Origin: Candidatus Omnitrophota bacterium
GTDB lineage: Bacteria > Omnitrophota > Gorgyraeia > Duberdicusellales > 4484-171
DNA length: 64,000 bases
NCBI GenBank assembly: GCA_024542985.1
Contig: JAMXCX010000001.1
Coordinates: forward strand, 3,137-67,136
Direction of reading: 5' to 3'
In this document: positions 754 through 55,341 of the stretch, piece after piece
Layout of the letters: each line of letters opens with the position of its first letter
How positions within the stretch are numbered: the stretch's first letter is position 1
Notes under the pieces: generated by a model
Databases searched by the model: none
What the model saw: the letters and a program-made list of their open reading frames with translations, nothing else
Told to the model about the DNA's origin: nothing
Program-made: the position numbers and the translations under genes

Positions 754-1083
754 TTAATCATATTCATGGGTGACAAAGGCGTTAAGTTCTCCTGTAGCTG
801 TTAGATTAACCACAACTTGCATATGATCATGCTGAACCCAGCCAGCGTCGTTATCATTTCTTTGGCGTAATCCAAAACCTGTTTGTAGTGAGGCTCCGCC
901 GGGAATTAAATCTCCGGTTCTAGCATTAAGGTCGGCATACTCAAGTCCAGTATAATAAGCTACTTGTTGGGCCCGGCGCATGAAATCTTGGTCTACTAAA
1001 AGGGCAAAATTGGGGCTAAAACTTATAAAGGCAGTAAGAAGAATCGAAACCAACATTATACTTGAAATAATTATAACTATCAT
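754..1083 (-). CDS. small membrane-anchored hypothetical protein, last gene of pilin-like cluster
   Basis: N-terminal hydrophobic helix (IVIIISSIMLVSILLTAFISF); start overlaps stop of upstream gene in ATGA (1080-1083), indicating translational coupling. Confidence 0.45.
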   Translation of the reverse strand: MIVIIISSIMLVSILLTAFISFSPNFALLVDQDFMRRAQQVAYYTGLEYADLNARTGDLIPGGASLQTGFGLRQRNDNDAGWVQHDHMQVVVNLTATGELNAFVTHEYD

Positions 1084-1736: not shown

Positions 1737-1753
1737 CTTAAAAAATACTTTTT

Positions 1754-2665: not shown

Positions 2666-2684
2666 ATACCCGTTTTTATCTTAT

Positions 2685-3428
2685 CTAATTCTGAACCGGC
2701 ATAACCGTAATAATCAGGTTACGGGCAGTATTGCCGCCTTCATCCAGAGGGCTGATTATAATCAAAGATGTATTATTTAACCACTCGATTCTAAAATCCA
2801 TTCTATTAGGAAATTCGCCCCCGAAATCTTCCGGCCTAAGATAAGCACTGCCGGTTATAGTGGGGTCACTGGGAGTGTAGACTCCTATTCCGCCTTGAAA
2901 AGGAATAGTCATAACCGCTTCGTTGCCTCTTGGCTGGCCATTAACTAATAAACGGGTAAAAACTTTCCCGCCCTTAAATTCTTCATAAGCATAGCCGCTC
3001 CATCTACCGCCTATACCCAAGGCCTGACATACGGTTGCTATAGGCAAAAATTCAGCTTTACCTACCACGCGAATTGTCCAGGTCACAAAAATACCTGTAT
3101 ATTTTTGATACTCTCTGCCTATTCCTCCTTGGCCTCTGAAATTAACGGTTGTCTCTAATATCGGCTCAAACTCAAAAGGAGCACCCAATCTACTTTGTGT
3201 TATGGGTTTTCCGCCAACCATCAAACAAGCCTCTGCACATGCCTTGGCTGAAGAAGGATATCTTGAAAAGGTAAACTCAGGGTAGACTGTTAAGCCATAG
3301 CTCACCTCTCCTTGGCCTATTTCTTGTATTACTACCGGAGCCAGAGAAGGCCTTGTGTCGGCTGCAGCCGGAGAAACAGAAACAGCAGCTAAAAAAATAA
3401 TGCTTAGAATAAAATACATAAATTTCAT
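2685..3428 (-). CDS. secreted protein, paralog A of tandem pair (unknown family)
   Basis: Start reassigned to ATG at 3426-3428 (MKFMYFILSIIFLAAVSVSPAAA = Sec signal peptide) preceded by AGGAGGG Shine-Dalgarno; ~55% identical to 3755-4525 product with an identical 24-aa block MTIPFQGGIGVYTPSDPTITGSAY. Confidence 0.6.
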   Translation of the reverse strand: MKFMYFILSIIFLAAVSVSPAAADTRPSLAPVVIQEIGQGEVSYGLTVYPEFTFSRYPSSAKACAEACLMVGGKPITQSRLGAPFEFEPILETTVNFRGQGGIGREYQKYTGIFVTWTIRVVGKAEFLPIATVCQALGIGGRWSGYAYEEFKGGKVFTRLLVNGQPRGNEAVMTIPFQGGIGVYTPSDPTITGSAYLRPEDFGGEFPNRMDFRIEWLNNTSLIIISPLDEGGNTARNLIITVMPVQN

Positions 3429-3754
3429 TTTTTCCCTCCTTTTTTTAACCTTTAAATTTATTTGTAAAACAACTGTCATAACTGCTCTTACTAAAAAATT
3501 ATCCTCCTCCTTCATCTTTACTATAAACTAAGGATTTTTCCTTAGCCATAGTTATGAACAGGTATAGCAGTGGTAATAGCTTACCAAAGTATGAGCCTTA
3601 TCAGTTTAAACTAAGCTAATACGATTAAAATGCTTAACCTAACTATGTACAATAATATTATATCATTAAAAGGTGCAGTTCCTTAAAAAAACAGAACTAC
3701 CCTCTTGCTGAAACCAAGCTATTAATAGCAAACCTTTTTACTTAAGCCGGCCTA

Positions 3755-4525
3755 TTACTGAACCGGCATAATCGTAATAATCAGGTTCCGGCTAGTATTG
3801 CCGGTAATGCCACCTGGACCGTCCAGGGGACTGGTTATGGTCAAAGATGTATGGTTCAGCCAGGAGACTTCAAAATTCATTGTATTCGGAAACCTACCTC
3901 CCGGAAAATCTTTCGCCCTGATATAAGCGCTTCCGGTAATAGTAGGGTCACTGGGAGTATAGACCCCTATTCCGCCTTGAAAAGGAATAGTCATAATAGC
4001 AAGATTACCTTGTTGCGTACCATTAACAGTAAGCCGAGTTTCAACTTCCCCGCCTATAAATTCCTCATACACATAGCCATGCCAGTTACCAGCACCTAAT
4101 ACCTGGCATACACCCTTACGATCACCTGTCCATAAAGGCATAAACTCAGCACTACCGATTACACGTATGGTCCAAGTAATAAACATAGCTGTATTTTCTC
4201 GATACTCTGTTCCTATACCATTGACGCCAGTAAAATTAACAGTTGTGCTCAGTATCGGCTCGTAACTAAAAGGAGCACCAAAAACTGCTGCCTCAATGGG
4301 TTGACCTTCTACTGCATTACACTTATCTACACAGCGCTGTTCACCGCCAGAGTACCTGGAAAACCTATCAAAGAAAGGATAAACGGTCTTAGAATAAGTT
4401 ACTACTCCTGCTCCCATTTCCTGTATTACTAACGGGGGCAAAGAAGGTCTGGTAGCTGCTGTAGCGGTAAAAGTAAAAGATACCACCAGCAAAAGAACAC
4501 TTAAGCCAATTACAATACTTTTCAT
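3755..4525 (-). CDS. secreted protein, paralog B of tandem pair (unknown family)
   Basis: MKSIVIGLSVLLLVVSFTFTATAAT signal peptide; GGGAGG Shine-Dalgarno upstream; CxxxC+C pattern and conserved C-terminus NLIITIMPVQ shared with paralog A. Confidence 0.65.
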   Translation of the reverse strand: MKSIVIGLSVLLLVVSFTFTATAATRPSLPPLVIQEMGAGVVTYSKTVYPFFDRFSRYSGGEQRCVDKCNAVEGQPIEAAVFGAPFSYEPILSTTVNFTGVNGIGTEYRENTAMFITWTIRVIGSAEFMPLWTGDRKGVCQVLGAGNWHGYVYEEFIGGEVETRLTVNGTQQGNLAIMTIPFQGGIGVYTPSDPTITGSAYIRAKDFPGGRFPNTMNFEVSWLNHTSLTITSPLDGPGGITGNTSRNLIITIMPVQ

Positions 4526-4578
4526 TATCCACCTCCCTTATACGTTTAAACAAATTAATTAATCTCTCTAATCTATAT

Positions 4579-6438
4579 TTACTCCCTCGTCCTGGTCACA
4601 TAAAAATGCATGTTCAGCACTTTCATGGTTAAGGTGACATTCGGAACACTAGGGATAAAATATTCTAACCGCATACGATAAGTTTTTCCCGGAGTTAATT
4701 CTCCGGCATCGATATTGGTGCCGGCAAAAATAGTAAAAGCATTGGTAAAATCCTTTTGATGAAGCATACTGGAATGTTCCTGTATAACTTCTTCTTCACC
4801 GGCAGCGTTAAATCCATAAAGCATAGCCCGTGTGAAAAAATAAGCTTGATTAGCCCCAATAAGCGGTATGTCGGGATTCTCTGAATTAACCTCCCAAAAA
4901 ATCGCAAAGGATTCCCCGCTCTTAGGCACAAATTCATAAAAAAAGTCTCCATCAATTTCGCTATAGCAAGCAGTGCAATCCCATTCAGTCGGCTCACCGG
5001 CAAGGCATGCCTCAGCCATTATTAGCAGCTGGCCGCAAAAGCCTGAATCTAAAGAGTGTGTAGCACATGTTGCATCGTCGCCACTAACAGCATTTTTACC
5101 TAAGCCTATTTCTCCGCAACAATAATGCTCTGGTTCAGGCAATTGAAAATCAGGTAAAGTTCCGATTTCATCATCCCAATCCAATACGCCCTTAAGGTCT
5201 GGATCTGACCTTTCATCGCATGACCTAGGGCTACAGTTCTCTTGGAAACTGAAACCTGTTCCGCTGCATTCCTGGGGAGTTCCATCAGGCCATGTATCAG
5301 GACAACATATATTAGCCTCACAACAACTAACTTCTTTTAAACACCTTTCTAAATCTTGGGTATAAGTTATGCACTCACCAGTATAATCCCTAAAATCGTC
5401 ATCCGGCACATATTGATAGCAAGTTGGGATCGGATCCGGCGGGTCCGGCGGGTCTGGATCCGGGTCCGGGTCTCCGCCACCGACATTATCGCAATCAAAC
5501 CAACCATCAGCAACTTTATCATCAATATCCTTTAGCTTAACGCACTTTTTATCACTGTCTTTAACAAGACAATGCTTATTGGGTTTATTGCAAGGACTAT
5601 CCGTACAGGCAAAACAGGCTGGGTCACCGGCAGGTATCATTAAAAGGCCGGCTAGCTTTTTATCTGTATTTAGAGAACTCTGCTGTTGAGGAGGGATAAA
5701 ATCTGCCGGACAACTATCACCGGTAAGAACATCAGTAGGGTCTTTGTAATAATCATCTGAGGTGCTGGCTACATCCTTAAAAAATCTTTCCCTATAGTAC
5801 CCACTCAATGTAGGACTGCCATCCGGCCTACATCCGCTAAAAACAGGAAAAATATCGGGATCAGTACAATGCCATTCACCTGTTATAGGAGGAAACCTCT
5901 CACACCTTGCATCATCATTATCACTGGTGCCTGGATTAGGGTCAGTATTAGGACAACCTCTTGGTTGAGCCCCGTCAATAGGCCCAAGTGGTGTTTGGGT
6001 AGGAGGTACAGCATTAGTATCACCGTCAAGATAACTGCAGTCATTAAATTCAGTCCAGTCACCAGGCTGCATGTCAGTCTCACTACAAGTAAAAGGCGTA
6101 CGCTCACAACCATACCTGGCATTATGGTCTGCGGTGCATTTATACTTCTTTTCATATCTACTAGCAGGGTCTTCTACCAAGCAACAATCCGGGCATTGCC
6201 CTTGCGTTGTCAAAGTTATACATCTTGAGCACTGAGCACTCATATCAAGAAGATGTTGAACATCACAAGGGACAGTACCTAGGATGACATCGCCAACTGC
6301 AACCCAAGATATCTCATCACTGCTTTCATCACGCGCAATCCGGGCAATACTTGCAGTCCTTCTGGCATAAACAAATTGGGTGATAATTGTAAAAAATAAA
6401 AGTACTAGGATTATCCTAAACCATAGTAATTTCTTCAT
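4579..6438 (-). CDS. large cysteine-rich secreted protein with (DP)n linker; putative pilus-associated adhesin
   Basis: Start placed at MKKLLWFRIILVLLFF (ATG 6436-6438, GGGGGGAAGG Shine-Dalgarno upstream). About 50 Cys in recurring C..C/CC patterns; GGGDPDPDPDPPDPPDPIP linker; Cys-free C-terminal ~150 aa domain. Sits between pilin gene and secreted paralogs. Confidence 0.65.
   Translation of the reverse strand: MKKLLWFRIILVLLFFTIITQFVYARRTASIARIARDESSDEISWVAVGDVILGTVPCDVQHLLDMSAQCSRCITLTTQGQCPDCCLVEDPASRYEKKYKCTADHNARYGCERTPFTCSETDMQPGDWTEFNDCSYLDGDTNAVPPTQTPLGPIDGAQPRGCPNTDPNPGTSDNDDARCERFPPITGEWHCTDPDIFPVFSGCRPDGSPTLSGYYRERFFKDVASTSDDYYKDPTDVLTGDSCPADFIPPQQQSSLNTDKKLAGLLMIPAGDPACFACTDSPCNKPNKHCLVKDSDKKCVKLKDIDDKVADGWFDCDNVGGGDPDPDPDPPDPPDPIPTCYQYVPDDDFRDYTGECITYTQDLERCLKEVSCCEANICCPDTWPDGTPQECSGTGFSFQENCSPRSCDERSDPDLKGVLDWDDEIGTLPDFQLPEPEHYCCGEIGLGKNAVSGDDATCATHSLDSGFCGQLLIMAEACLAGEPTEWDCTACYSEIDGDFFYEFVPKSGESFAIFWEVNSENPDIPLIGANQAYFFTRAMLYGFNAAGEEEVIQEHSSMLHQKDFTNAFTIFAGTNIDAGELTPGKTYRMRLEYFIPSVPNVTLTMKVLNMHFYVTRTRE
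5433..5474 (-). repeat. imperfect in-frame hexanucleotide repeat (GGRTCY x7) encoding the (DP)n linker of the Cys-rich protein
   Basis: ggatccggcgggtccggcgggtctggatccgggtccgggtct on plus strand; encodes DPDPDPDPPDPPDP on minus. Confidence 0.5.
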
Positions 6439-6469
6439 AATAATACCTTCCCCCCTCAATGTTAGCCTT

Positions 6470-6892
6470 TTACCAAAAATCACAAGTTTGGCCTATCCTA
6501 CCTCTAATTTCAGTTACAAACATCTGCTCATTAGCACAAAGACCTTCATCGTGCCGGGTAGCAGTTGCATTAAACCCTCCAGTTACGCTCGCTGTAATAG
6601 TATAATCAAAAAACTTGTCATCAATATTAATGCCTAAGTTCAGCTTAATCGATTGCTTACTGCATGGATCACAGATATAATATACACCCATATTATCCAG
6701 CTTGTGCCTCTTTTGGGCATTATAAATACTAACCAATGTTAAACTGGCGATTTTACCCTTACTCCTTTCAATAGAACCCTGATAAGAAGGCACTGCGAAG
6801 GATAGTACAATACCCATAATTACCAGCACCACCATTATCTCTAATAGAGAAAAGGTTTGCCTTTTTATTGTATTTATGGCTTTTTTTTTCAC
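6470..6892 (-). CDS. type IV pilin-like protein (140 aa)
   Basis: GTG start with GAGGGAGG Shine-Dalgarno. MKKKAINTIKRQT-FSLLEIMVVLVIMGIVLSF: class III signal peptide with Glu+5; two Cys near C-terminus (D-region-like); Thr at -1. Confidence 0.7.
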   Translation of the reverse strand: MKKKAINTIKRQTFSLLEIMVVLVIMGIVLSFAVPSYQGSIERSKGKIASLTLVSIYNAQKRHKLDNMGVYYICDPCSKQSIKLNLGINIDDKFFDYTITASVTGGFNATATRHDEGLCANEQMFVTEIRGRIGQTCDFW

Positions 6893-6977: not shown

Positions 6978-7802
6978 TCAGTTTTTTCTCCCAGCATTCC
7001 AGCTTTCCAGGCTGTATTTATCCGCGAGCAGGCGGTTAACTTGCTTTCTTTCTGCAAAATCAATACCTTTGGCTTTAATCTTGAGCCCAAAACTAAGCTT
7101 AAAGCTTCTTGCCAGTAAAGAACGTAAATAGCTAAATTTAGTTTTCTCACCCAGAACCTTATCTAAACAAGTAGTTTTTTGCTTTAGATCCTCGGTTTGC
7201 TTTATAGATTCCCGTATCATTTTAAAATTTAACCTTTGAGGTATACTGCCCTGCTGGAAAATAATATTTCTCTTCCTCCTTTGAGCATTACCGCCTATTT
7301 TTTTATCCTTTATCAGCAAATCAAAATGCTGATAACTTAAAAAGCAAAAGTTGCTGTATAGGCCTAAGGTTTTTTGAGTTAATTTTAAGCTCTTATTTTT
7401 AGAATAACTCCCCTTTATTTTATCACCGGCAAAATGAGCCTCTAAGCCCAAACAGGAATAGAAACGCTTAAGCCAAGAACAAATTATTCGGTAAGAATCT
7501 TTAACTGATTTGGGTAGACTTAAGTCTTCTAAAGAACAAACTAAACTGTAGGTAATTTCCTGGTCATGAAGGATAGCTGAACCTCCGGTGCTTCTTCTTA
7601 CAAAGGGAAGGGTATTTTTGCTGGTTAAAACATCCTGGGGTTTTTGGTTATAACCCAGAGAAATAAACGGCTGAGCCCAGCCATATATTCTTAAGGTGGG
7701 GGTGTTGTTCTGATAATAGTTTAAATGCAAGGCCTCATCAAGGGCCATATTATAATAGCCTTCGCCTTTTTTATCTAAAATCAGTCTCCAGACTTTTCCC
7801 AT
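6978..7802 (-). CDS. lipoate-protein ligase family protein (LipM/LplA-like octanoyltransferase, BPL/LPL catalytic domain)
   Basis: YYNMALDEALHLNY...IYGWAQPFISLGYNQ...RRSTGGSAILHDQEITYSL matches LplA/LipM catalytic motifs; 274 aa (LipM-size); last gene of gcv operon. Confidence 0.75.
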   Translation of the reverse strand: MGKVWRLILDKKGEGYYNMALDEALHLNYYQNNTPTLRIYGWAQPFISLGYNQKPQDVLTSKNTLPFVRRSTGGSAILHDQEITYSLVCSLEDLSLPKSVKDSYRIICSWLKRFYSCLGLEAHFAGDKIKGSYSKNKSLKLTQKTLGLYSNFCFLSYQHFDLLIKDKKIGGNAQRRKRNIIFQQGSIPQRLNFKMIRESIKQTEDLKQKTTCLDKVLGEKTKFSYLRSLLARSFKLSFGLKIKAKGIDFAERKQVNRLLADKYSLESWNAGRKN

Positions 7803-9232
7803 TTTAAGTTAGGGAATCTTGCTGCTTTGACCTCATCAATTCTTTTTACTGAAACCGAGTGAGGTGCAGTTTTGACTTTGGCTAAATCCTGGTCTATCTC
7901 CTTATCTATATCTCTCATGGCTTTAATGAAATAATCCAAAGCCTGCTTGCTTTCAGTTTCTGTAGGTTCTATCATTAAAGCTTCAGCAACAATTAAGGGA
8001 AAATACATTGTCGGGGGATGGATACCAAAGTCAATTAACCTCTTGGCAATATCCAGGCTTGAAGCTCCCCGCTCTTTTTGCTTTTGACAGCTGAACACAA
8101 CTTCATGTAGACACCTTTTAGGGTAAGCTACCTCATATTGATTCTTTAACTTTTCCTTTATATAATTAGCATTTAAAGTCGACACCTGGGCTACCCTTAA
8201 CAAGCCTTGTTCTCCTAAGCGCAAGATATAGGCATAAGCTCTTACCAAGACAAGAAAATTGCCGTAAAATCCTTTTAAGCGGCCGATAGAATTTTTCACC
8301 TGGTAATTCAGGTAAAATTTGTCTCCCCTTTTATCTATCAAGGGAAAGGGCAAAAAATCCTCTAAGGTATCTCCTGCTCCTACTGCGCCGGCACCCGGGC
8401 CGCCGCAGCCGTGAGGTGTAGAAAAAGTCTTATGCAGATTTAAGTGGATAACATCAAACCCCATCAAAGAAGGATTAGTAACGCCTAGCAGAGGGTTGAA
8501 ATTAGCTCCGTCATAATAAAGCAAACCACCTTTTTTATGAACAATATCTCTTATCTCTAGAATATTCTCCTCAAATAACCCTAAAGTATTGGGGTTGGTA
8601 AGCATTATTGCTGCTACTTTATCGTCGACAATCTCTTTCAATCTGTTAATATTTACCAAACCGTCCTTAGTGCTTTCAACTGTCAATACTTGATAACCGC
8701 ACATACTGGCTGTAGCCGGATTAGTTCCGTGAGCGGAATCCGGAATAATAACTTTAGTTTTTTGATTGTTGTTTATCCGGTGAAATTTGCGAATCATCAG
8801 GAGCCCGGCTAACTCACCTTGGGCCCCGCTTGAAGGCTGAAAAGTAAACCTCTTCATCCCGGTAATTACACTTAAGGCTTGGGATAAATTATAAATAAGC
8901 TCTAAAGCACCTTGAATACAATCTGCGTTCTGGTAAGGATGGATATCAGTAAATCCGGCTAGAGAAGCTAAATACTCGTTAAGTTTAGGATTATATTTCA
9001 TAGTGCAGGAGCCTAAGGGGTAAAAATTGCTATCAACAGAAAAATTTGAACTGCTTAAACTAGTATAATGCCGAATTACTTCCAACTCCCCCAGGTTAGG
9101 TAAAGGTAGGTTCTCTCTTAGACAACTTTTAGGAATAACTTTATCCAGCTCAGCTAAAGGAGTATCCGGCTGGTTTATGTAATTAGTATTTTTTGAATTG
9201 CTGTTTTTGTCAAATATTTGTAGTTTCTCCAT
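7781..9232 (-). CDS. gcvPB: glycine dehydrogenase (aminomethyl-transferring) subunit 2
   Basis: PLP-dependent P-protein C-terminal half; start moved to MEKLQIF (ATG 9230-9232) to limit overlap with gcvPA; conserved operon position. Confidence 0.9.
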   Translation of the reverse strand: MEKLQIFDKNSNSKNTNYINQPDTPLAELDKVIPKSCLRENLPLPNLGELEVIRHYTSLSSSNFSVDSNFYPLGSCTMKYNPKLNEYLASLAGFTDIHPYQNADCIQGALELIYNLSQALSVITGMKRFTFQPSSGAQGELAGLLMIRKFHRINNNQKTKVIIPDSAHGTNPATASMCGYQVLTVESTKDGLVNINRLKEIVDDKVAAIMLTNPNTLGLFEENILEIRDIVHKKGGLLYYDGANFNPLLGVTNPSLMGFDVIHLNLHKTFSTPHGCGGPGAGAVGAGDTLEDFLPFPLIDKRGDKFYLNYQVKNSIGRLKGFYGNFLVLVRAYAYILRLGEQGLLRVAQVSTLNANYIKEKLKNQYEVAYPKRCLHEVVFSCQKQKERGASSLDIAKRLIDFGIHPPTMYFPLIVAEALMIEPTETESKQALDYFIKAMRDIDKEIDQDLAKVKTAPHSVSVKRIDEVKAARFPNLKWEKSGD

Positions 9233-10571
9233 GCAACACCTCAGCCAAAGTTTCAATAAAATTGTCAATATCTGCTTTAGTCTTCTTTTCAGTGCAACAG
9301 CTTAAAATAGCATTTTTATGTTTAGGAAATATCCTACCTACAAAATAGCCGGCAATAATATTCTTTTCATAAAGTTTCGCTATAACTGCGGCCGCATCCT
9401 GCACTTCCCAGATAAATTCATTAAATATTTGCTTAGAGTAAGGAATCTTTATACCCCTAATTTCTTTTAGGCGCTGGTAAAGATACTGTGTATTCTGAAA
9501 AGAGCTCAAAGCCACATTTTTCATTCCCTGTTGGCCCATCAACGAAAGATACACAGCTGCCCCGATTGCGTTTAAGGAGTGGTTGGAACAAATATTACTG
9601 GTAGCTTTTTCTCTTCTTATGTGCTGCTCCCGGGTTTGTAAAGTAAGGCAATAAGCCGGTTTAGTTTCTTTATCGGTAGTTTTTCCCACAATTCTTCCCG
9701 GAATTTGTCTTGTGTACTTCTTCCTAGCTGCCAAAAACCCCAATGACGGCCCGCCAAAACTTAAACTCCCCCCCAAAGGCTGGCCATCTCCGCAAACAAT
9801 ATCTACTCCTAATTCAGCCGGTTCTTTGAGAATAGCTAATGACATAGGGTTAGTCACCATAATCGTTATGGCGCCGTAACTAGCTACCGTATTAGATACC
9901 CGCTCTACATTTTCAACCAGTCCGAAAAAATTAGGGCTCTGCAAACAGCAACAAACAACATCATCATCTAAGTATCTCTCTAGAACATCTTTTTCTAAAA
10001 TGCCCTTATCCGCAACTTTTACCTGCTGGATAGTAAAATCAAAACCGCTTAAATAAGTATTTAAAGTCTCTTTGTATTCGGGATGCAAATATTCAGCGAC
10101 AAGAACCTTTTTTCTTTTAGTCATTCTTAAGGCCATAAGTACTGCTTCGGCTAAACTGGATGCACCGTCAAACATAGAGGCGTTAGAAACATCCATGCCT
10201 GTTAAAAGACAGATGTAACTTTGATACTCATAGATGGCCTGTAATATTCCTTGCGAACATTCAGCCTGATAGGGAGTGTAGGCAGTAAGAAACTGCGGCT
10301 GAGAGAGCATGTAGGGCAAAGCCGCCGGTATATAATGGTCGTAACAGCCTGCGCCTAAGAAAGAATTATATTTATCAAGAGTAATGTTTTTAGCTGCCAG
10401 TTCCTCTATTCTTTTCTTGACATCAAATTCGCTGCCACCCCTTGCTAAATCTAAAGGTTTTTTTAATCTTAACGAGGAAGGAATTTGAGCATATAACTCC
10501 TCCAGAGAACTCAAACCTACAACTTTAAGCATTTCTTCGATATCTTGGAGAGTATGGGGAATATAAGGCAT
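9210..10571 (-). CDS. gcvPA: glycine dehydrogenase (aminomethyl-transferring) subunit 1
   Basis: 453 aa; P-protein N-terminal half; between gcvH and gcvPB. Confidence 0.9.
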   Translation of the reverse strand: MPYIPHTLQDIEEMLKVVGLSSLEELYAQIPSSLRLKKPLDLARGGSEFDVKKRIEELAAKNITLDKYNSFLGAGCYDHYIPAALPYMLSQPQFLTAYTPYQAECSQGILQAIYEYQSYICLLTGMDVSNASMFDGASSLAEAVLMALRMTKRKKVLVAEYLHPEYKETLNTYLSGFDFTIQQVKVADKGILEKDVLERYLDDDVVCCCLQSPNFFGLVENVERVSNTVASYGAITIMVTNPMSLAILKEPAELGVDIVCGDGQPLGGSLSFGGPSLGFLAARKKYTRQIPGRIVGKTTDKETKPAYCLTLQTREQHIRREKATSNICSNHSLNAIGAAVYLSLMGQQGMKNVALSSFQNTQYLYQRLKEIRGIKIPYSKQIFNEFIWEVQDAAAVIAKLYEKNIIAGYFVGRIFPKHKNAILSCCTEKKTKADIDNFIETLAEVLHGETTNI

Positions 10572-10606
10572 AATATACTGCTTAAAAGTTTATAATCTGT
10601 AAAGCC

Positions 10607-10981
10607 TCAATGGCTTTCCTTGGCTATCAGTTCCCGGTAAGTACTCTCATCCATAAGGCTATTGAGCTCTGAATGATTTGTAATTTTAAGTTTAACCAGC
10701 CAGCCTTTATCATAAGGCGACTCATTTATCCACTGAGGATTATCAACCAAATCGCTGTTGACCTCAACTATTTCTCCGCTCAAAGGCACATATAATTCGC
10801 TAGCTGTTTTTGTAGATTCAATAGTGCCTAGCTGTTCAGATTTCTGCAACTTTGCTCCTGGCTGCGGTAATTCAATAAAAACTATATCTCCCAGCTGCTT
10901 CTGGGCGTAATCGGTTATGCCTATCGTCGCTATAGCCGCATCTTCTTTGACCCACTCGTGGGATTTAGAGAATTTTAGCAT
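10607..10981 (-). CDS. gcvH: glycine cleavage system H protein
   Basis: 124 aa; lipoyl-lysine motif ESTKTASELY. Confidence 0.9.
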   Translation of the reverse strand: MLKFSKSHEWVKEDAAIATIGITDYAQKQLGDIVFIELPQPGAKLQKSEQLGTIESTKTASELYVPLSGEIVEVNSDLVDNPQWINESPYDKGWLVKLKITNHSELNSLMDESTYRELIAKESH

Positions 10982-10985
10982 TTTA

Positions 10986-12107
10986 TCACACCTCTTTTTT
11001 TGACTTTGTGTTTATTTTAACAAAAGGATATTTAGCTATCTTTGCCTTATAAAACTTTTTTCTTATCTGAATTTCAATTGTTTTCCCGGTGGCTGCGTAT
11101 TCGGATAATACGTAGGCCATACCGATAAATTTATTCAAGTTCGGAGAAAATGTTCCGCTGCAAACTTCTCCTATTTTATTTCTTCCCAGATACAACCCAT
11201 AACCCTGACGGGCAAGAGCCTTCTCATCCATTATAAAACCGACTCTTATTTTCTTTAAGCCTTTATTTTTTATTCCTACAATTTCCTCCTTAGCAATAAA
11301 GTCTTTATTTGATTTTACTGCCCAACCTAAAGAAGCTTCATAGGGATTAGTCTCCTCATTAATCTCATGCCCATATAAAGGGTATCCGGCTTCTATTCTT
11401 AAAATGTCTCTTGAGCCTAGACCGCAGGAAATAAGGCCAAAGCCTTCCCCTTCCTGGATAAGCCTATCCCAAAAATACGGGGCATCTTTTGACTCAATAT
11501 ATATTTCAAACCCATCTTCACCGGTATAGCCGCTGCGGGATATAAGAACCTGCCGATGGTCAATTTCTTTTTTAGTAAAAAACATATAATCTAAGCTGGC
11601 AATCTTTTCGCCAAAAACCCTGGCTATTACTCTAGATGAGCTCGGCCCTTGAATAGAAATAAGGGCTGTTTCTTCACTTTTATCGATGAGCTCAACGCCC
11701 TGTTCCTTATTGTCTCTTAGCCAAGAAACCACTTTATCTTTATTGGAAGAATTTACAACACATAATAAGCTCTCATCGCAATAATAACACATAAAATCAT
11801 CAATAATACCCCCGGAGGTATTCAAAAAAAGATTATACTGCATCTGGCCCGGAGCTATCAAGGAAATATCGTTAGGAGTGAGTTTTTGCAGGAATTTGAA
11901 AGCTCCCTTCCCTTTTATTTCTATTTCACCCATGTGAGAGGCATCAAACAAACCGCAATTTAGGCGCACCTGTTTTGCCTCTTTGAGCATACTGCCATAA
12001 TCTAGAGGCAAGGCCCATCCTGCAAAATCAATTATCCGGCCTTTATTTTGAAGGTGTTTTTGGTAAAGCGGAGTTTTTCTTGATTCCATATTCCTATTTT
12101 TAGTCAA
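10986..12107 (-). CDS. gcvT: glycine cleavage system aminomethyltransferase T
   Basis: 373 aa; first gene of gcvT-H-PA-PB operon. Confidence 0.9.
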   Translation of the reverse strand: MTKNRNMESRKTPLYQKHLQNKGRIIDFAGWALPLDYGSMLKEAKQVRLNCGLFDASHMGEIEIKGKGAFKFLQKLTPNDISLIAPGQMQYNLFLNTSGGIIDDFMCYYCDESLLCVVNSSNKDKVVSWLRDNKEQGVELIDKSEETALISIQGPSSSRVIARVFGEKIASLDYMFFTKKEIDHRQVLISRSGYTGEDGFEIYIESKDAPYFWDRLIQEGEGFGLISCGLGSRDILRIEAGYPLYGHEINEETNPYEASLGWAVKSNKDFIAKEEIVGIKNKGLKKIRVGFIMDEKALARQGYGLYLGRNKIGEVCSGTFSPNLNKFIGMAYVLSEYAATGKTIEIQIRKKFYKAKIAKYPFVKINTKSKKEV

Positions 12108-15342: not shown

Positions 15343-16137
15343 TTAGATTTTTTTAATAATAAGTTTTGTTTTTTTGCCCGGCGATATTTTAAAATAGTTT
15401 TTAGCGCTTTCTCCCTTTAGTGAAACTTCTAAATAGCCAAAACTGCCCTCAATGAAAAATGGTTCATTTGGCCTATTTTTGACGTAAGATCCGCTTAGGG
15501 TTTTAATTTTCTTCCCGGCTAAAGTAGCCCTAAATTTTTTACCCTTTAGAAACTTTTGCAGAAAACTTTTTTCTATGTTAGTAACCAGATTGCCGAATTT
15601 ATCTATATAAATAACTTCTCCCTCCAGAAACCTTCTCTTTTCTTTAGGCAAAACAAAATCAAGCTTTTTTATTCTTTCAATGGCCTTACCTAAATGAGAA
15701 AAATAAACGCCTCCGCAAAGATGAGCGGCTACCGGAGCAAAGATATCCCGGCCCTGGAACGTAGATGATATATTTTTTAAGAAAAAACGTTTGTCATTTA
15801 ATTCTATCATTTTCTTAATTCCGTCAGCTTCGGCAGCCGGCCATAAAACGCCGTTGTCGGGGCCGAGGAAATAATAGTTCTTTGTTTTTATGGCAATCGC
15901 TGCTCGCGATGAGCCAACCCCGGGGTCAACTACCACCAAAAAGACCATACCCTTGGGAAAGTAAGAAAAACTTGTCCGCAAAACAAAAGCTGCCTCGTTT
16001 ATCTTATGCGATTTTATCCTATGAGTGATATCTATCAATTTTACTCTCGGATTAATTGTTAAGATAACTCCTTTAACTACTCCGACATAATTATCATTTA
16101 GGCCGAAATCAGTAAGTAAAGCAACTGTATTCTTCAT
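15343..16137 (-). CDS. S-adenosyl-L-methionine hydroxide adenosyltransferase family protein (DUF62)
   Basis: LLTDFGLNDNYVGVVKGVIL...IDITHRI...VVVDPGVGSSR matches DUF62/SalL-like N-terminal domain. Confidence 0.7.
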   Translation of the reverse strand: MKNTVALLTDFGLNDNYVGVVKGVILTINPRVKLIDITHRIKSHKINEAAFVLRTSFSYFPKGMVFLVVVDPGVGSSRAAIAIKTKNYYFLGPDNGVLWPAAEADGIKKMIELNDKRFFLKNISSTFQGRDIFAPVAAHLCGGVYFSHLGKAIERIKKLDFVLPKEKRRFLEGEVIYIDKFGNLVTNIEKSFLQKFLKGKKFRATLAGKKIKTLSGSYVKNRPNEPFFIEGSFGYLEVSLKGESAKNYFKISPGKKTKLIIKKI

Positions 16138-17168
16138 CCTAATAGCCCGCCTGTTTCCTTTACATAAATCTCTGTATTTTTAATAATTTTATTCATCATA
16201 TCAACAACCTTAGCCGGATGTCTTCCTATGGCAGTTTCTGCGGATAAAAGTAGATGCGTTGCTCCGTCTAAAATCGCATTAGCCACATCACTGACTTCGG
16301 CCCTGGTAGGTGAAGGGCGCTCAATCATACTATCAAGCATCTGGGTAGCCACAACAACCGGTTTTTGTTTTATACGGCACATTTTAACAATTTCTTTTTG
16401 AATTACCGGAACCTTATAAATAGGTACACAAATCCCTAAGTCACCCCGGGCAACAATGATGCCATCACAAGAATCAATAATCTCCTCAAGATTTTTAAGA
16501 GCATCTCTGCTTTCAATTTTAGCGATTATCTTACATCCGGGATGTCTGGGTTTAATTAATTCTTTAAGCAGCCGTAAATCCTCGGCGCTGTTAACAAAAG
16601 ACTGGGCGATATAATCTAATTTTTCACCTATGCCAATATTTAAATCTTTTTTATCCTTTTCAGTCAAAGCCTCAAATTCTAACTTTGCTTGGGGTATATT
16701 TATGCCTTTGTGGCTTTGTAATAAACCCGGGGTAATAATCTTTAGTTTTATATGCTTTTTGCCAACTGATTTTACCTCTAAGACTATCCTCCCGTCATCA
16801 ACGTAAATCAAAAATCCCGGTTTTATTCTTTTTAGTGAGCCGAGATAATCAAAAGAGACTTCCCGCTCGCTGCCGACTATATCCTGCTGGGTAAAATAAA
16901 TATAACGGCTTTTTTTTAACTGCAAGGGTTCATTTAACCTGCCGACCCTTATGCGATACCCTTCTAAATCCTGCATTATCTTTATCGAGCGCCTCATCTT
17001 CGCATTAAGAGCCCGAATAAGTGAGATTTTTTCTAAATGTTCTTTAGAGGTGCCGTGAGAAAAATTAAGACGGACACAATCGAGCCCGCTAGTTATCATT
17101 TTGCGCAGGATAGCCTCATTGCTGCTTGAAGGGCCTAAGGTAGCGATAATTTTTGTTACGGGTATCAT
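16134..17168 (-). CDS. pyk: pyruvate kinase, short form lacking C-terminal domain
   Basis: KIIATLGP...NFSHG...KIIAKIES...VARGDLG...ATQMLDSMI PK signatures; protein ends right after the A-domain (344 aa). Confidence 0.8.
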   Translation of the reverse strand: MIPVTKIIATLGPSSSNEAILRKMITSGLDCVRLNFSHGTSKEHLEKISLIRALNAKMRRSIKIMQDLEGYRIRVGRLNEPLQLKKSRYIYFTQQDIVGSEREVSFDYLGSLKRIKPGFLIYVDDGRIVLEVKSVGKKHIKLKIITPGLLQSHKGINIPQAKLEFEALTEKDKKDLNIGIGEKLDYIAQSFVNSAEDLRLLKELIKPRHPGCKIIAKIESRDALKNLEEIIDSCDGIIVARGDLGICVPIYKVPVIQKEIVKMCRIKQKPVVVATQMLDSMIERPSPTRAEVSDVANAILDGATHLLLSAETAIGRHPAKVVDMMNKIIKNTEIYVKETGGLLG

Positions 17169-19012
17169 ATCTCTCTTTTTCGGGTCGAAGATAAAACCAG
17201 CATCCTTAATGATTCTTTATCCTTCATATCCATCCAGTGTTTATAGAAATTATGCTCGCGCACTATCTGGGCAATTGCCATTAAAACCCGCAAGTGAAAA
17301 TTTCTTACATCTTGAGAGCCAACCAGCACAAATGCAATATGTACCGGCTCTTCGTTAAGCGAAAAGGGTATACCGGGCCGTGACCTTGCTAAAATCATCT
17401 CAAACTTATTGGCTCCCGGCACAACGATATGCGGAATAGCCAGGCCTTTTTCAATAACCGTGTGTGATTCTTGCTCTCGTTTTAACAACAGATTTTTTAT
17501 TTGGGCCGCATCTATGTTAATTCGCTCAGATAAAACTTCACTAACCTGAGTAAAAAACTCATCCCTGCTCATTGGCTCCTCTATGTCCAACACCGGACAA
17601 TTCTCAATCAAATGGTCAAACCTGTCCTTTACTATATTATCCCGTTTATGAAGAATATCTTTTAATTCTTTCTCTAAAGAAGTATCAACAAACTCTTTAG
17701 CCGTAATTCTCTCTACTAAATGCATAAGGGCCGATTGTCTTTTTATCTTACGGGCTGAGAATAAAAACCAAACAAAGCTGACCATTGCAAAACAGCTACT
17801 TATAATAAGCGAGACCTTACCCATTTTAAAGATTAAAAAACTATAACTGATTAAGGCGAAAATCTGCAGCCAGGGATAAAAAGGCGTGCGAAATGTAGGC
17901 CGGTAATTTATTATCTTGCTTTCGCGCATTATAATAACCGAAAGGTTAACAAACATAAAAAGGATAATCATAAGGGTCGAAGCAATCTTTACTAAATCTT
18001 TAAGGTCTAAAAAAAGAATCAAAAGAAACATAAACAATCCTGTGACAATTACAGATAAAAAAGGAGTATTAAACTTCTTTGATAAAGAAGAAAACTTAGA
18101 AGGGAGTAAGCCATCTTTGGCCATAGCAAAAGGTATCCGCGAAGACGCGAATATACCGGCATTGGCAGTGCTAATAAAAGCGATAGCGGCCGCTAATGAT
18201 AACACTACAGCAAAGCTAACCCCTCCTAGCTTGAAAGCGCCGTGAGTCAAAGGTGTAAAGGTTGATACAAGTTCATGAGACGGTAAAATTCCAACTGTAA
18301 CTGCTATGCATAAACAATACAATACTTGCACGACAAAAAAAGCCAAAAACATACCCGTGGGAATAGTCTTGGAAGGATGCTTTGTATCTTCAGCAATAGA
18401 TGCCACTTTAGTGAGCCCCCCGTAGGAAATGAATACCAGGCCAACTACGGAAAGAAATGCTCCTTTACCTTGAGGCAAGAAAGGCTTAAAATTCTGCCAG
18501 GAAATATTCCTTACACCTAGAAAAACGTAGGTTGCGCATACCAAGAGTAGAAAAACAACCATCAGGTTCTGGATACGAGCGCTTAATTTAACGCTAAAAA
18601 TATTTATGATTACGAAAAGGACACAAAAAGAAGCAGCAACAAGTTTTACCTGAAAATAATCAAAAGAAGGCGAAAAATACTCTAAAAATAACCCTATACC
18701 CACCAAAGCAAAAGCACTTTTTAAAGCCAGCGAAAACCAGCTAGCCAAACCGCTAAATATCCCCAAAAACGGCCCAAAACTTCTCTCAATAAAAAAATAG
18801 GTCCCTCCGGCCTTAGGCATGGCAGTAATTAACTCTGATTTGCTTAAAATTGAAGGAATCATCAACAATCCGGCAAGAAAATAAGCTACAACTATAGAAG
18901 GCCCAGTTTGCCTATAAGCAATAGCCGGAAGTATGAATAACCCCGATGAAATCATAGTCCCGGTTGCCATACAGAAAATATCCCATAAACCAAGCTTTTC
19001 TTGAACTTTCAT
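17165..19012 (-). CDS. APC-family amino acid/polyamine permease fused to C-terminal PTS EIIA type-2 (EIIA-Ntr-like) domain
   Basis: ~440 aa with multiple TM helices (APC fold), then cytoplasmic domain ...KREQESHTVIEKGLAIPHIVVPG...PVHIAFVLVGSQD...HLRVLMAIAQIV matching PtsN/EIIA-2 with active-site His. Confidence 0.75.
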   Translation of the reverse strand: MKVQEKLGLWDIFCMATGTMISSGLFILPAIAYRQTGPSIVVAYFLAGLLMIPSILSKSELITAMPKAGGTYFFIERSFGPFLGIFSGLASWFSLALKSAFALVGIGLFLEYFSPSFDYFQVKLVAASFCVLFVIINIFSVKLSARIQNLMVVFLLLVCATYVFLGVRNISWQNFKPFLPQGKGAFLSVVGLVFISYGGLTKVASIAEDTKHPSKTIPTGMFLAFFVVQVLYCLCIAVTVGILPSHELVSTFTPLTHGAFKLGGVSFAVVLSLAAAIAFISTANAGIFASSRIPFAMAKDGLLPSKFSSLSKKFNTPFLSVIVTGLFMFLLILFLDLKDLVKIASTLMIILFMFVNLSVIIMRESKIINYRPTFRTPFYPWLQIFALISYSFLIFKMGKVSLIISSCFAMVSFVWFLFSARKIKRQSALMHLVERITAKEFVDTSLEKELKDILHKRDNIVKDRFDHLIENCPVLDIEEPMSRDEFFTQVSEVLSERINIDAAQIKNLLLKREQESHTVIEKGLAIPHIVVPGANKFEMILARSRPGIPFSLNEEPVHIAFVLVGSQDVRNFHLRVLMAIAQIVREHNFYKHWMDMKDKESLRMLVLSSTRKREI

Positions 19013-19063
19013 AATGTAAAAATCATACCATAATTTAAAAAAAGCTCAAAGTATAAAAGAATT

Positions 19064-19323
19064 ACCTGCCTGCTGTGTAGTTCTTCACAGTTTCAGTAAC
19101 AAGAAAGCAAAGATATGCAATAACAATTTTTGAGGAGGCTCTGAGGCCTTAAAAGCAAGGTATCCAGACCGAAGGGATGGATTTTTAAGGCCGAAGCGCC
19201 AGGCAAAAGTCCTGCCTGCTGCCGGCAGGCAGGACTTTTGGGTCCCAGAAAATTGTTAATGTATATCCATGGTCTTTTATCAAATGTTACCGAAATTCTG
19301 AAGTTGTACACGGTAGGCAGGCC
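19064..19323. promoter_or_regulatory. symmetric array of GC-rich CCTGCCTRC motifs (outer imperfect inverted repeats plus central palindrome CCTGCCTGCTGCCGGCAGGCAGG) directly upstream of the permease promoter
   Basis: 19066 fwd, 19211 fwd, 19224 rev, 19313 rev copies; a TTGAGC-16-TATGAT promoter lies between the left arm and the permease ATG. Confidence 0.4.
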
Positions 19324-19348
19324 TGGCTGTTGACAGCTTATACTGGCC

Positions 19349-51528: not shown

Positions 51529-53289
51529 TTAAACCATTAAAATGTTGCGGTAAGATTCACTTGTTAAAATCCTCTTTAATTCACTATGCAAATACTTCTC
51601 CACTTCTTTGGGCGTATGAAGTTTCAAAGTGTTCTCAACAATGCCTTTAGCATTCTCAAAGTTAATGCTATTTATTAATTCTTTTATCTTAGGTATCTGA
51701 GGAGCAGACATGCTAAATTTGTCAAGCCCCATACCTAAAAGCAAAAAGGCAAAAAGCGGATCTCCTGACATTTCACCGCACATACCTACCGGAATATTAT
51801 TATTATGAGCAGCATCAATAATGCCTTTTATCAGTTTTAAAACCCCGGGGTGGCCCGGTTCGTAAAGATAGGCTACCTTTTCATTGCCTCTATCTACAGC
51901 CAACGAATATTGGATTAAATCATTTGTGCCGATGCTAAAGAAATCACACTCTTTTGCTAAAATATCAGCAGTTAAAGCAGCTGAAGGGACTTCAATCATT
52001 GCACCTACAGCGATATCCTCATCAAATATTTTACGTTCACTCTTTAACTCTTTCTTGCACTCTTTTAGAAGGGCTTTTGCCTGTCTTAACTCTTCGATTC
52101 CTGAAATCATCGGAAACATTACCTTCACGTTCTTTTTCACAGAGGCTCTTAAAATTGCTCGCAATTGAACCTTAAAGAGGTCTGGATGCGCCAGGCAAAA
52201 CCTAATCGCTCTCCAGCCCAAAAAAGGACTCATTTCTTTAGGAACTTCGGGACGTGAAAGAAATTTGTCACCTCCGATATCAATAGTCCTAAATACCACC
52301 GAATGAGGACTAATATCCTTAGCTACGCTAAGATAAGCCGCATATTGTTCATCCTCTGAAGGAGAATCTCTCCTTCCCAAGAAAATATATTCTGTTCTGT
52401 AAAGACCAATACCCTCTGCTCCGTATTCCTTAACTAAAGAAAGTTCTTCAGGAAGCTCCATATTGGCAGAAATTGTGGCTTCTTTTCCGTCTTTAGTGCG
52501 GGCTTTAAGTGCCCGGGGTATATGGATTGCCTTTACTTCTTTAGCATATGCAGTTGATTTTTTATGGTATTCTCTTAATGTCTTATCTGTAGGACGACAA
52601 ATAACATAGCCTGAAGAACCATCAACTATAACTTTATCCCCGGATTTTACATTTTCTGTAGCTATTTCCACTCCTACAACAGCCGGAATTCTTAAAGCCC
52701 GGGCGATAATTGCAGTATGCGAAGTCCTACCTCCTATATTAGTTACAAAGCCTAAGATATTTTCTTTAGGCAAAGACGCAGTTTGAGAAGGAGAAAGATC
52801 ATGAGCAACAATAACTACCTTTTCTTTCAAATCACTTAAAGTAGCAGCTTTTTCTTTAAGCATCTTCCTTAAAACTCTTTTGGAAACATCCTCAATGTCT
52901 ATTACTCTTTCCCTTAAGTATTCATCATTAAGTTTTAACAAAGTATCGACATACTTTTTTACGCTCTGCGAAAAAGCATATTCAACATTTACGTGCTTGT
53001 TCTTAATCTGCATAATAACATCCTCAATCAAAACTCTATCTTCTAAAACGAGAAAATGTGCCTCAAATATTCTGCCGTGGTCAAAACCGATTTCTTTAGA
53101 AATTTTTTTCTGCAAATTAGATATCTCTCGACGGGTATCAATCAAAGATTCCTCCAGATGATAAATCTCCCGGGAAATTTCGTCGTGACTAATTTTTCGC
53201 TTGGGTACAGTAAGCTCGTCCTTTCTTAGTAATAAAACCTTACCTATCCCAACTCCCCCAGAAACGCCAATACCTTTTAACTTAATCAT
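51529..53289 (-). CDS. ptsI: phosphoenolpyruvate-protein phosphotransferase (PTS Enzyme I)
   Basis: 586 aa; GGRTSHTAIIARAL phospho-His region; PEP-utilising C-terminal domain; no N-terminal GAF. Confidence 0.85.
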   Translation of the reverse strand: MIKLKGIGVSGGVGIGKVLLLRKDELTVPKRKISHDEISREIYHLEESLIDTRREISNLQKKISKEIGFDHGRIFEAHFLVLEDRVLIEDVIMQIKNKHVNVEYAFSQSVKKYVDTLLKLNDEYLRERVIDIEDVSKRVLRKMLKEKAATLSDLKEKVVIVAHDLSPSQTASLPKENILGFVTNIGGRTSHTAIIARALRIPAVVGVEIATENVKSGDKVIVDGSSGYVICRPTDKTLREYHKKSTAYAKEVKAIHIPRALKARTKDGKEATISANMELPEELSLVKEYGAEGIGLYRTEYIFLGRRDSPSEDEQYAAYLSVAKDISPHSVVFRTIDIGGDKFLSRPEVPKEMSPFLGWRAIRFCLAHPDLFKVQLRAILRASVKKNVKVMFPMISGIEELRQAKALLKECKKELKSERKIFDEDIAVGAMIEVPSAALTADILAKECDFFSIGTNDLIQYSLAVDRGNEKVAYLYEPGHPGVLKLIKGIIDAAHNNNIPVGMCGEMSGDPLFAFLLLGMGLDKFSMSAPQIPKIKELINSINFENAKGIVENTLKLHTPKEVEKYLHSELKRILTSESYRNILMV

Positions 53290-53548
53290 CTCCTCTCTCC
53301 AAAAATTCTTTTAGATCATTCATGGCACTAGAGGCATCGTTACCTTCTATGATCAGCCTTATTTTCATACCATTATTTATCCCTAAGCTCAATATGGCAA
53401 TGATTGACTTACCATCGACAGCTTCACCATCTTTTTCCATCTTGACTGACGAATCAAATTTATTAGCCATTTGGACAAAGACAGACGCTGGACGCGCATG
53501 TAAACCATGAATTTTATTCACAATTATTTGTTTTTCGAATCTCTCCAT
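53282..53548 (-). CDS. ptsH: phosphocarrier protein HPr/NPr
   Basis: 88 aa; NKIHGLHARPAS (His15 region) and KSIIAILSLG (Ser46 region). Confidence 0.85.
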   Translation of the reverse strand: MERFEKQIIVNKIHGLHARPASVFVQMANKFDSSVKMEKDGEAVDGKSIIAILSLGINNGMKIRLIIEGNDASSAMNDLKEFLERGDD

Positions 53549-54786: not shown

Positions 54787-54847
54787 GTCAACATTATTCT
54801 GAAATATAGCGCTAAAATCAAATTGCCTTGATTCAGCAATTACGCTA

Positions 54848-54870: not shown

Positions 54871-55341
54871 TTATCTTACTACCCGCTGCTGGTTATCCAA
54901 CAACATAAGCACATCTTTTTCATCTTTAACACTTTTAAGCCTCTGGACAAGGTATTTATCACGCAGAATTCTAGCCAAAAACGCCAACATCTTAAGATGC
55001 AAGCCTGCCTCTTTTTGATTGGAAAGAAGAAGAGCGATAACGTTAACCGGTTCTTGGTCTAAAGAGTCAAAATCAACTCCTTCTTTGGAAATAGCTATGC
55101 AGATTATAATACTTTTTACTGAGGTAAGCCTAGCATGAGGAAAAGCGATATGATTACCAATAGCGGTTGAACCCATCTCCTCTCTTTGGCAGATAAGCTT
55201 GAGAATTTCTTTTTTTTCACGGCTTTCTACTTTTCCTTTCTGGACAAGATGATCAAGAATAACAGATACAGTATTCTTTTTGCTTCTTTTTTTTAACCCT
55301 AAAATAATGCCATCTTTATCTAAATAATCCAAAATATTCAT
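54871..55341 (-). CDS. ptsN: PTS EIIA type-2 (EIIA-Ntr, PtsN-like)
   Basis: REEMGSTAIGNHIAFPHARL...PVNVIALLL...HLKMLAFLARIL. Confidence 0.75.
   Translation of the reverse strand: MNILDYLDKDGIILGLKKRSKKNTVSVILDHLVQKGKVESREKKEILKLICQREEMGSTAIGNHIAFPHARLTSVKSIIICIAISKEGVDFDSLDQEPVNVIALLLSNQKEAGLHLKMLAFLARILRDKYLVQRLKSVKDEKDVLMLLDNQQRVVR

Follow-up and report, generated by a model that had tools for sequence, protein, structure and literature searches.

A permease-EIIA type-2 fusion in Omnitrophota and allied phyla, and its probable control in cis by a phosphotransferase relay

Regulatory phosphotransferase systems that act independently of sugar raise the question of which proteins they govern; to our knowledge such systems are widespread, and their targets are known only for a few Proteobacteria, through interactions in trans that are hard to predict from sequence. 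A locus in a 64,000-nucleotide stretch of DNA from a Candidatus Omnitrophota bacterium (contig JAMXCX010000001.1, positions 3,137 to 67,136; the whole stretch is hereafter called the window) poses this question in covalent form: a permease of the APC superfamily is joined in one polypeptide to an EIIA type-2 (EIIA-2) domain of the phosphoenolpyruvate (PEP)-dependent phosphotransferase system (PTS). What is such a domain doing on a permease, and what would feed it? The answer that we favour, and consider probable while leaving real room for doubt, is a switch in cis: phosphotransfer from PEP through Enzyme I (EI) and HPr to His528 of the fused domain would turn the permease on or off. The gene and its parts, given in nucleotides (nt) of the window and amino acids (aa) of the protein, are as follows:

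17165..19012, minus strand: permease-EIIA-2 fusion gene, 615 aa, with its stop codon at 17165-17167 (list of open reading frames and Pfam)
17753..19012, minus strand: permease core, aa 1-420, of the APC/LeuT fold with 12 transmembrane (TM) segments (Pfam, hydropathy, AlphaFold2, Foldseek and phmmer)
17600..17752, minus strand: cytoplasmic linker, aa 421-471, with the basic RKIKRQ after TM12 followed by three short helices
17192..17599, minus strand: PTS EIIA type-2 fold, aa 472-607 (PF00359, PtsN structure matches, AlphaFold2 and Foldseek)
17477..17479, minus strand: codon of Arg512, the EIIA-2 active-site arginine, aligned with the 'RE' of PtsN
17429..17431, minus strand: codon of His528, the predicted phospho-acceptor (AIPH, nt 17429-17440), aligned with the histidine of PtsN GVAIPH
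17294..17296, minus strand: codon of His573, the second active-site histidine (FHLR), likewise aligned with PtsN and conserved in orthologs
17168..17191, minus strand: basic C-terminal tail SSTRKREI, aa 608-615, assigned by conservation

The preliminary description of the window had read the open reading frame (ORF) at 17165-19012 as an APC permease fused to an EIIA type-2 domain, and this is confirmed to the exact coordinates, on the minus strand and with both Pfam families. Only 11 in-frame codons lie 5' of the ATG, and homologs share the start methionine; along the protein, the permease takes up 420 aa, the linker 51, the EIIA fold 136 and the basic tail 8. The NCBI entry 'MAG: amino acid permease [Omnitrophica bacterium]' (MAG, metagenome-assembled genome) is 100% identical to it. 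A gene of this kind could be an artefact, either neighbouring genes joined by assembly or a frameshift, or a recent fusion that is not under selection; the chance of this is negligible, and the data effectively rule the reading out. In 78 of 80 loci, each from an independent species genome, one continuous ORF spans the fusion; thousands of clusters from NCBI, JGI, ENA and Logan match it in length and carry the two Pfam domains, and the junction, that is the linker, is among the most conserved segments of the protein. One of the two exceptional loci is cut by a contig end, and nothing speaks for an artefact except the other, L059 (L numbers denote genome loci), where the parts are split by a stop or frameshift.

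The permease part, first described as a multi-TM APC transporter of about 440 aa, is about right at that length; it comprises aa 1-420 with approximately 12 TM segments, the last of which lies near aa 418 by hydropathy and is followed by a hydrophilic tail of 195 aa that starts with RKIKRQ. AA_permease_2 matches aa 7-395 (E 4e-45, 154.9 bits against a gathering score of 27) and AA_permease matches aa 12-400 (E 2.6e-43, 148.9 bits against 24.6); together with PTS_EIIA_2 further along the protein, this is the Pfam architecture that the preliminary description had led one to expect, with all three families far above their cutoffs. The full-length AlphaFold2 (AF2) model, built with 69 homologs, has a mean predicted local distance difference test (pLDDT) of 84 and is confident for both domains, with values mostly of 80-95 in the permease part. 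The best Foldseek match of this part is GkApcT (6f34/5oqt; TM-score 0.85, root-mean-square deviation (rmsd) 2.5 Å), a proton-coupled transporter; AdiC, BasC, ApcT (TM-scores of 0.81-0.86, GkApcT included) and SLC7 proteins follow, and 5oqt is also the best phmmer match in the PDB (E 1.7e-31, approximately 22% identity). GkApcT, ApcT, AdiC, BasC and the SLC7 proteins thus share the 12-TM LeuT fold and are the closest to aa 1-420 in both sequence and fold; unlike the fusion, GkApcT and other APC transporters end shortly after TM12 and carry no EIIA domain. APC transporters have both termini inside the cell, so the tail of the fusion is cytoplasmic and reachable by HPr.

From its sequence the permease appears to be a secondary transporter of the APC superfamily, the substrate of which would be an amino acid or related amine. 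Of the substrate-specific models curated in NCBIfam, none was passed (TIGR00909, 229 against 557 bits; BcaP, 180 against 690; FrlA, 112 against 800), and no riboswitch or leader RNA that might hint at a substrate was found at 19013-19348 at the Rfam gathering threshold, at which the window gave three tRNAs elsewhere.

The C-terminal domain is EIIA-2 by family and PtsN-like by shape. PTS_EIIA_2 (PF00359) matches aa 481-606 (E 4.7e-20, 72.5 bits against a gathering score of 27) over profile positions 15-141 of 144, and a sequence search of the PDB with this domain returns EIIA-2 proteins only; the top matches are PtsN of Burkholderia, Neisseria and E. coli, whose GVAIPH aligns with GLAIPH of the query; the PtsN structures 4gqx, 2a0j and 3urr match at E ~1e-6. 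The features initially attributed to the last ~150 aa can be placed exactly: the AIPH motif is aa 525-528, and the HL...LA helix is aa 573-581 (within FHLRVLMAIAQ). A separate AF2 model of aa 420-615 has pLDDT values of 90-97 across the EIIA fold, and the six best Foldseek matches of the domain in the PDB are all IIA-Ntr proteins (TM-scores 0.79-0.86, rmsd 2.1-3.0 Å, E ~1e-10); the top structures include 2a0j, 3urr, 1a6j, 4gqx, 3oxp, 1xiz and 1a3a, and below IIA-Ntr come sugar EIIA-2 domains and then the cytoplasmic regulatory domains of SLC4 proteins. An assignment to TrkA-C or USP, which the preliminary description had named as the outcome that would overturn it, is unsupported by Pfam, the PDB sequence search and Foldseek; profile, PtsN sequence match and fold all give EIIA-2. 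The FruA-IIA model of NCBIfam is not passed (46 against 103.5 bits).

With an EIIA domain on a transporter, it could be asked whether the protein acts as a PTS Enzyme II of an unconventional kind, its EIIA domain energising or phosphorylating the substrate, with group translocation through the APC fold. The only thing in favour of this is the covalent link between transporter and EIIA itself, as in EIICBA permeases such as MtlA (9a2w, among the Foldseek matches). The fusion has no EIIB or EIIC family among its Pfam matches, its membrane part is an ordinary APC fold nearest to GkApcT, and we know of no amino acid that serves as a PTS phosphoryl acceptor; such an Enzyme II is extremely improbable and, like an artefactual fusion, effectively excluded.

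Active-site conservation was followed in an alignment of 116 full-length homologs with 49-100% identity. Arg512 and His528 are invariant (116/116), and His573 is kept in 114 homologs and replaced by tyrosine in two. The same Arg-His-His (R-H-H) triad is found in all 82 fused ORFs of the 80 species-representative genomes and in 119 of 120 proteins of the Planctomycetota branch, the remaining one having S-H-H. The acceptor histidine, whose absence from orthologs had been named in the preliminary description as an outcome that would refute it, is therefore present throughout these sets (116/116, 82/82 and 120/120). Every part of that first interpretation which could be put to a computed check held up. 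That the triad has been kept in several phyla, in relatives with as little as ~49% identity, would be difficult to account for without selection for phosphoryl acceptance.

The segments that flank the EIIA fold are conserved as well. The linker helices carry SALMHLVERIT, LExELKxIL, RD and DRFD (the last at nt 17615-17626); A428, L446, E449, L450, I453, R457, D458, D463 and D466 are invariant in 116/116 homologs, while R464 (113/116) and F465 (115/116) are nearly so. In the tail, none of the 116 homologs departs from R611 or R613; nearly every one of the 82 genome ORFs likewise has an R-x-R tail, as do other architectures that bear the domain. The linker is as conserved as the catalytic site, yet its pLDDT at aa 440-460 is below 50 in both the full-length and the isolated AF2 model; so conserved a stretch that finds no confident place within the molecule suggests a docking element that lacks its partner in the model. 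Linker and R-x-R tail may make their contacts elsewhere: with the permease on its cytoplasmic side when in one of its states, with another protomer or with HPr.

The proteins that could feed the fused domain are encoded elsewhere in the window:

51529..53289, minus strand: Enzyme I of the PtsI type, with three PEP-utiliser domains and no GAF domain (TIGR01417, 644 bits against a cutoff of 342)
53282..53548, minus strand: HPr, with His17 (GLHARPA) and Ser48 (GKSII) (PF00381, E 2e-27; TIGR01003, 91 bits against 48)
53524-54786, minus strand: YvcK/CofD-family protein (TIGR01826, 369 bits against 196)
54871..55341, minus strand: stand-alone EIIA-2 protein, 156 aa, with His69 in AFPH (PF00359, E 7e-33, 114 bits)

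This relay at 51529-55341 had been described as EI, HPr, a stand-alone EIIA-Ntr and YvcK. Its composition stands, as EI, HPr and YvcK pass curated models and an EIIA-2 protein is present; the name EIIA-Ntr expresses a resemblance and no curated membership, since the protein scores below the cutoffs for both PtsN (76.3 against 138.7 bits) and FruA-IIA (96 against 104). EI obtains 623 bits with the PtsI model against 422 with the PtsP model, and by sequence the pair of EI and HPr belongs with the general PtsI/HPr type, not with PtsP/NPr. The YvcK-family protein has an extra hydrophobic N-terminus of ~100 aa; its gene separates that of the free EIIA-2 from that of HPr, whose start it overlaps, and this place is taken by RapZ in proteobacterial ptsN-npr clusters. 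No EIIB, EIIC or HprK domain was found in the 40 Pfam-scanned ORFs (of 54 with at least 150 aa) of the window, which covers 64 kb and not the whole genome; permease-less regulatory PTSs are documented in Brucella (PMC2937029). A recent duplication of the free EIIA-2 protein was considered as the origin of the fused domain and rejected: the two are 28% identical, and a profile of the linker and EIIA domain gives them 62.6 and 328.8 bits, respectively. The 150 best-scoring library proteins all reach at least 165 bits with this profile, which sets their clade apart from the free EIIA.

In the switch that we propose, EI and HPr, 33 kb away from the fusion gene, would pass a phosphoryl group from PEP to His528, the occupancy of which would track the cellular PEP:pyruvate ratio; the phosphorylated and dephosphorylated domain would engage the permease differently via the conserved linker, turning uptake on or off in cis. 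The data show both folds, the topology, the conserved active site, the relay encoded in the same genome and the reuse of the domain on other proteins; we infer the phosphotransfer, its effect on transport, the sign of that effect and the substrate. The stand-alone EIIA-2 protein would compete with the fused domain for the same phosphoryl donor. The arrangement would be the covalent counterpart of free PtsN, which acts on K+ transport proteins in trans; such PtsN-dependent control of K+ transport is established (PMC9239096). The fusion probably ties nutrient uptake directly to the PEP status of the cell.

Several observations weigh against this proposal. The fused domain fails the PtsN equivalog model TIGR01419 of NCBIfam (29.6 against 138.7 bits); EI, HPr or other PTS genes never occur within 6 kb of the fusion in the 80 loci; the interdomain arrangement of the AF2 model is unreliable (predicted TM-score (pTM) 0.68, linker pLDDT below 50), so that no structural mechanism can be read from it; and a full-text literature search, whose scope did not extend to Barabote & Saier 2005 (MMBR), where such fusions may be listed, found no APC-EIIA or other transporter-EIIA-2 fusion described. 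Among 79 divergent APC-fused representatives (clustered at 50% identity), 60 have R-H-H and 10 have R-H-Y, five have the acceptor histidine replaced by N, F or S, and the remaining four have the arginine or second histidine varied or a gap at that position; the loss in five of 79 means that the domain can persist without phosphorylation in some lineages.

These distant sequences also bear on a different explanation, in which the EIIA-like domain is structural or regulatory independently of phosphorylation, through oligomerisation, docking or ligand binding as in SLC4 proteins, and its histidine has a non-phosphoryl role. Besides the missing acceptor histidine in five of the 79 and the tyrosine in place of the second histidine in 10, significant fold matches to SLC4 domains (NDCBE 5jho, AE2 8gv9 and Band 3) and the conservation of the linker and RKR tail outside of the catalytic site would suit this explanation. 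The SLC4 matches are weaker than those to PtsN (E ~1e-5 against 1e-10) at 10-18% identity, the arginine and acceptor histidine are kept in all close orthologs and in the other architectures, with the second histidine nearly always present, and the genome encodes EI and HPr; a role free of phosphorylation is accordingly considered unlikely, with a small chance of being correct.

Those other architectures came from a search of the linker+EIIA profile against 1.84 billion proteins. EIIA domains of the same clade are found at the C-terminus of other proteins, with E values of 1e-43 to 1e-61 on this cassette profile; the carriers are many Na_H_Exchanger+TrkA_N (CPA2) proteins and one Na_H_Exchanger+TrkA_C protein, a P-type cation ATPase (named Mg-transporting ATPase/PTS IIA in JGI), an F0F1 alpha-like subunit found in three independent sources (NCBI MCK5843070.1, Victivallales), and a beta-carbonic anhydrase+TrkA_N protein. 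Relative to the APC fusion, these sister architectures have the same cassette on a different N-terminal effector. All of them have the arginine and acceptor histidine intact, with R-H-H in 11/11 CPA2+TrkA_N representatives and tyrosine in place of the second histidine in two P-type ATPase representatives; the DRFD motif and basic tail are common to all, and the first two linker helices are present in the ATPase, the ATP synthase subunit and one CPA form and absent from other CPA2 forms. A cassette-profile search found no second cassette-bearing protein within the window. No characterisation was found for any sister architecture.

The occurrence of one cassette on antiporters, ATPases and a carbonic anhydrase suggests that it behaves as a portable or mobile regulator of transport and energy proteins, and by analogy the TrkA_N-EIIA fusions would echo the interaction between PtsN and TrkA in E. 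coli. In a more general form, which we put forward tentatively and hold to be somewhat less likely than its opposite, the linker, EIIA-2 domain and RKR tail would be a portable PEP-status switch; with it, a permease-less PTS would be wired to many energy proteins and membrane transporters, in effect a 'PTS-Ntr regulon' encoded in cis. The same distribution bears on the converse direction of signalling, in which the permease would be a transceptor: it would sense its substrate, alter phosphate exchange between its EIIA domain and HPr, and thereby report external amino acids to the PTS network through the phosphorylation of HPr and the stand-alone EIIA-2. Such a direction would draw on the stand-alone paralog beside EI and HPr, which would share the pool of phosphorylated HPr, on the known setting of EIIA phosphorylation by transport activity in sugar PTSs, and on the conserved linker of low pLDDT, which would fit docking that depends on state. 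The fusion has no EIIB and no phosphoryl sink, however, so that moving the substrate would draw off no phosphate, and a shift of equilibrium alone would be a weak signal; the spread of the cassette over antiporters, ATPases and carbonic anhydrase is also more simply read as one input with many outputs, and we therefore give a transceptor only a minor share of the probability.

Control of the permease by phosphorylation in cis would have precedents, in parts, in several known systems. PtsN/EIIA-Ntr of Proteobacteria (1a6j, 2a0j, 3urr and 4gqx) has the closest fold and the same R...AIPH...HL layout, and it acts in trans on the K+ transport proteins TrkA and KdpD. PtsN is a free protein of ~160 aa that binds reversibly and is typically encoded in an rpoN-linked cluster, whereas the fused domain is tethered through a linker, has a basic tail, and has an AddB-like nuclease gene and a pyruvate kinase gene as neighbours instead of such a cluster; the relay of PtsN is of the PtsP(GAF)/NPr type and that of the window of the PtsI/HPr type. 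PtsN is fed by a PTS relay that needs no sugar transport, and its output is the control of membrane transport (PMC9239096).

Other systems share one element of the arrangement each. PRD activators of the MtlR/LicR/ManR type carry a C-terminal EIIA-2 domain as a phosphorylation-controlled cis module on a non-PTS effector; there the effector binds DNA and has PRD and EIIB-Gat domains, whereas in the fusion it is a 12-TM permease without PRD or EIIB. The SLC4 exchangers (Band 3/AE1, AE2 and NDCBE) resemble the fusion in having an EIIA-2-like cytoplasmic regulatory domain on a secondary transporter (Foldseek matches 5jho, 8gv9, 8eeq and 7tw0, E 4e-6 to 2e-4); their domain is N-terminal, sits on another transporter fold, is eukaryotic and lacks phospho-His chemistry, with 10-18% identity to the fused domain. 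In inducer exclusion EIIA-Glc modulates non-PTS uptake through LacY, MalK and GlpK according to its phosphorylation state; in contrast to the EIIA-2 domain fused in cis, it belongs to the EIIA-1 superfamily and works in trans, and sugar flux drives it.

Around the fusion gene, the following features were noted:

19022..19049, minus strand: promoter-like site TTGAGC-16-TATGAT with a TG-extended -10, a consensus match only, ending 9 nt before the ATG
19211..19229, minus strand: terminator-like hairpin that closes the upstream AddB-like gene (sequence scan)
16134..17168, minus strand: pyruvate kinase (PK), barrel only, 344 aa (PF00224, E 7e-102)

The hairpin ends the AddB-like gene, so the permease would head its own transcription unit. 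No Shine-Dalgarno sequence is evident, and with a -10-like element only 9 nt from the start codon the mRNA may be leaderless or nearly so. The ATG of the PK gene overlaps the permease stop codon (ATGA), and PK is thus probably co-transcribed and translationally coupled with the permease, judging from this overlap. PK reaches 415 bits with TIGR01064, covering 3-339 of 476 positions, and has no PK_C allosteric domain. Of the 22 closest genome loci, 11 have it directly 3' of the fusion, as do L001 and CP070684.1; about half of the Omnitrophota-type loci have such a short, barrel-only PK in this place. PK was rejected as a universal partner, as the pairing is confined to the Omnitrophota-type clade and PK is absent 3' of the fusion in Cloacimonadota and Planctomycetota; in the Cloacimonadota loci a gene with a PspC domain follows instead. 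Within its clade the pairing is suggestive, because PK consumes PEP, the donor of the relay; where PK is co-transcribed, one can imagine, speculatively, that the PEP:pyruvate ratio closes a feedback loop.

Further along the same strand, 5-10 kb downstream (window 6978-12107, minus strand), are GcvT, GcvPA, GcvPB and a lipoate-protein ligase, and a glycine cleavage block likewise lies downstream of the fusion, on its strand, in another Omnitrophota genome (L004, 10628-13866). As a clue to the substrate this synteny is a faint hint at most, with unrelated genes intervening. At window 1080-6483 (minus strand) are five consecutive ORFs (218, 303, 276, 256 and 634 aa) that match no Pfam family at E≤1e-5.

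The fusion is not rare and is already visible to automatic annotation. All of the 120 best matches of the window protein carry both Pfam domains, as do 120/120 for a Planctomycetota relative, the search with which gave 6,139 clusters at E≤1e-50. The linker+EIIA profile finds 251 representatives (50% identity) at E≤1e-30 and 1,100 at E≤1e-10 among the 1.84 billion proteins, and it also finds at least 576 species genomes. The hosts belong to Omnitrophota, Planctomycetota (Phycisphaerae, Sedimentisphaerales, Brocadiia and Pirellulales), Cloacimonadota, Latescibacterota, Gemmatimonadota, Stahlbacteria and Coatesbacteria. Two loci, L057 (3773-7523) and L064 (2792-6585), hold tandem paralogs of the fusion, with the R/H/H triad intact in both copies. 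A 70-kb contig binned as Methanosarcinales (L015, JAIWAR010000002.1) also has a fusion locus, 72% identical over the cassette; this archaeal occurrence is probably a binning error, given the Omnitrophota-like sequence. No cultured host appeared in two large protein searches and the 80 genome loci, which gave only MAGs and one single-cell genome. No curated family model was found for the fusion; some members are labelled automatically as 'amino acid transporter/mannitol/fructose-specific PTS IIA component (Ntr-type)', others as 'APA family antiporter' or 'PotE'.

The fusion is a cis variant of a known regulatory principle and a widespread, database-visible family for which the literature search turned up no experimental study; it holds no conceptual surprise, as the domain combination can be seen in automatic annotation and PTS control of transporters is textbook knowledge. 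Its value is that a covalent fusion names its target outright: in at least 576 species EI and HPr would presumably act on an amino-acid permease, and in the sister proteins on ion antiporters and ATPases. If the cassette is a general switch, its targets in Omnitrophota, Planctomycetota, Cloacimonadota and allied uncultured phyla would include APC permeases, CPA2-TrkA_N antiporters, P-type ATPases, an F1-alpha-like subunit and carbonic anhydrase, and the fusions of TrkA_N with EIIA would preserve, in the manner of a Rosetta stone, the interaction between PtsN and TrkA. The fusion would also provide a compact, single-polypeptide system for EIIA-2 control of a LeuT-fold transporter, and a handle on how the gating of nutrient and ion fluxes might depend on PEP:pyruvate status in phyla that are large, uncultured and abundant in the environment.

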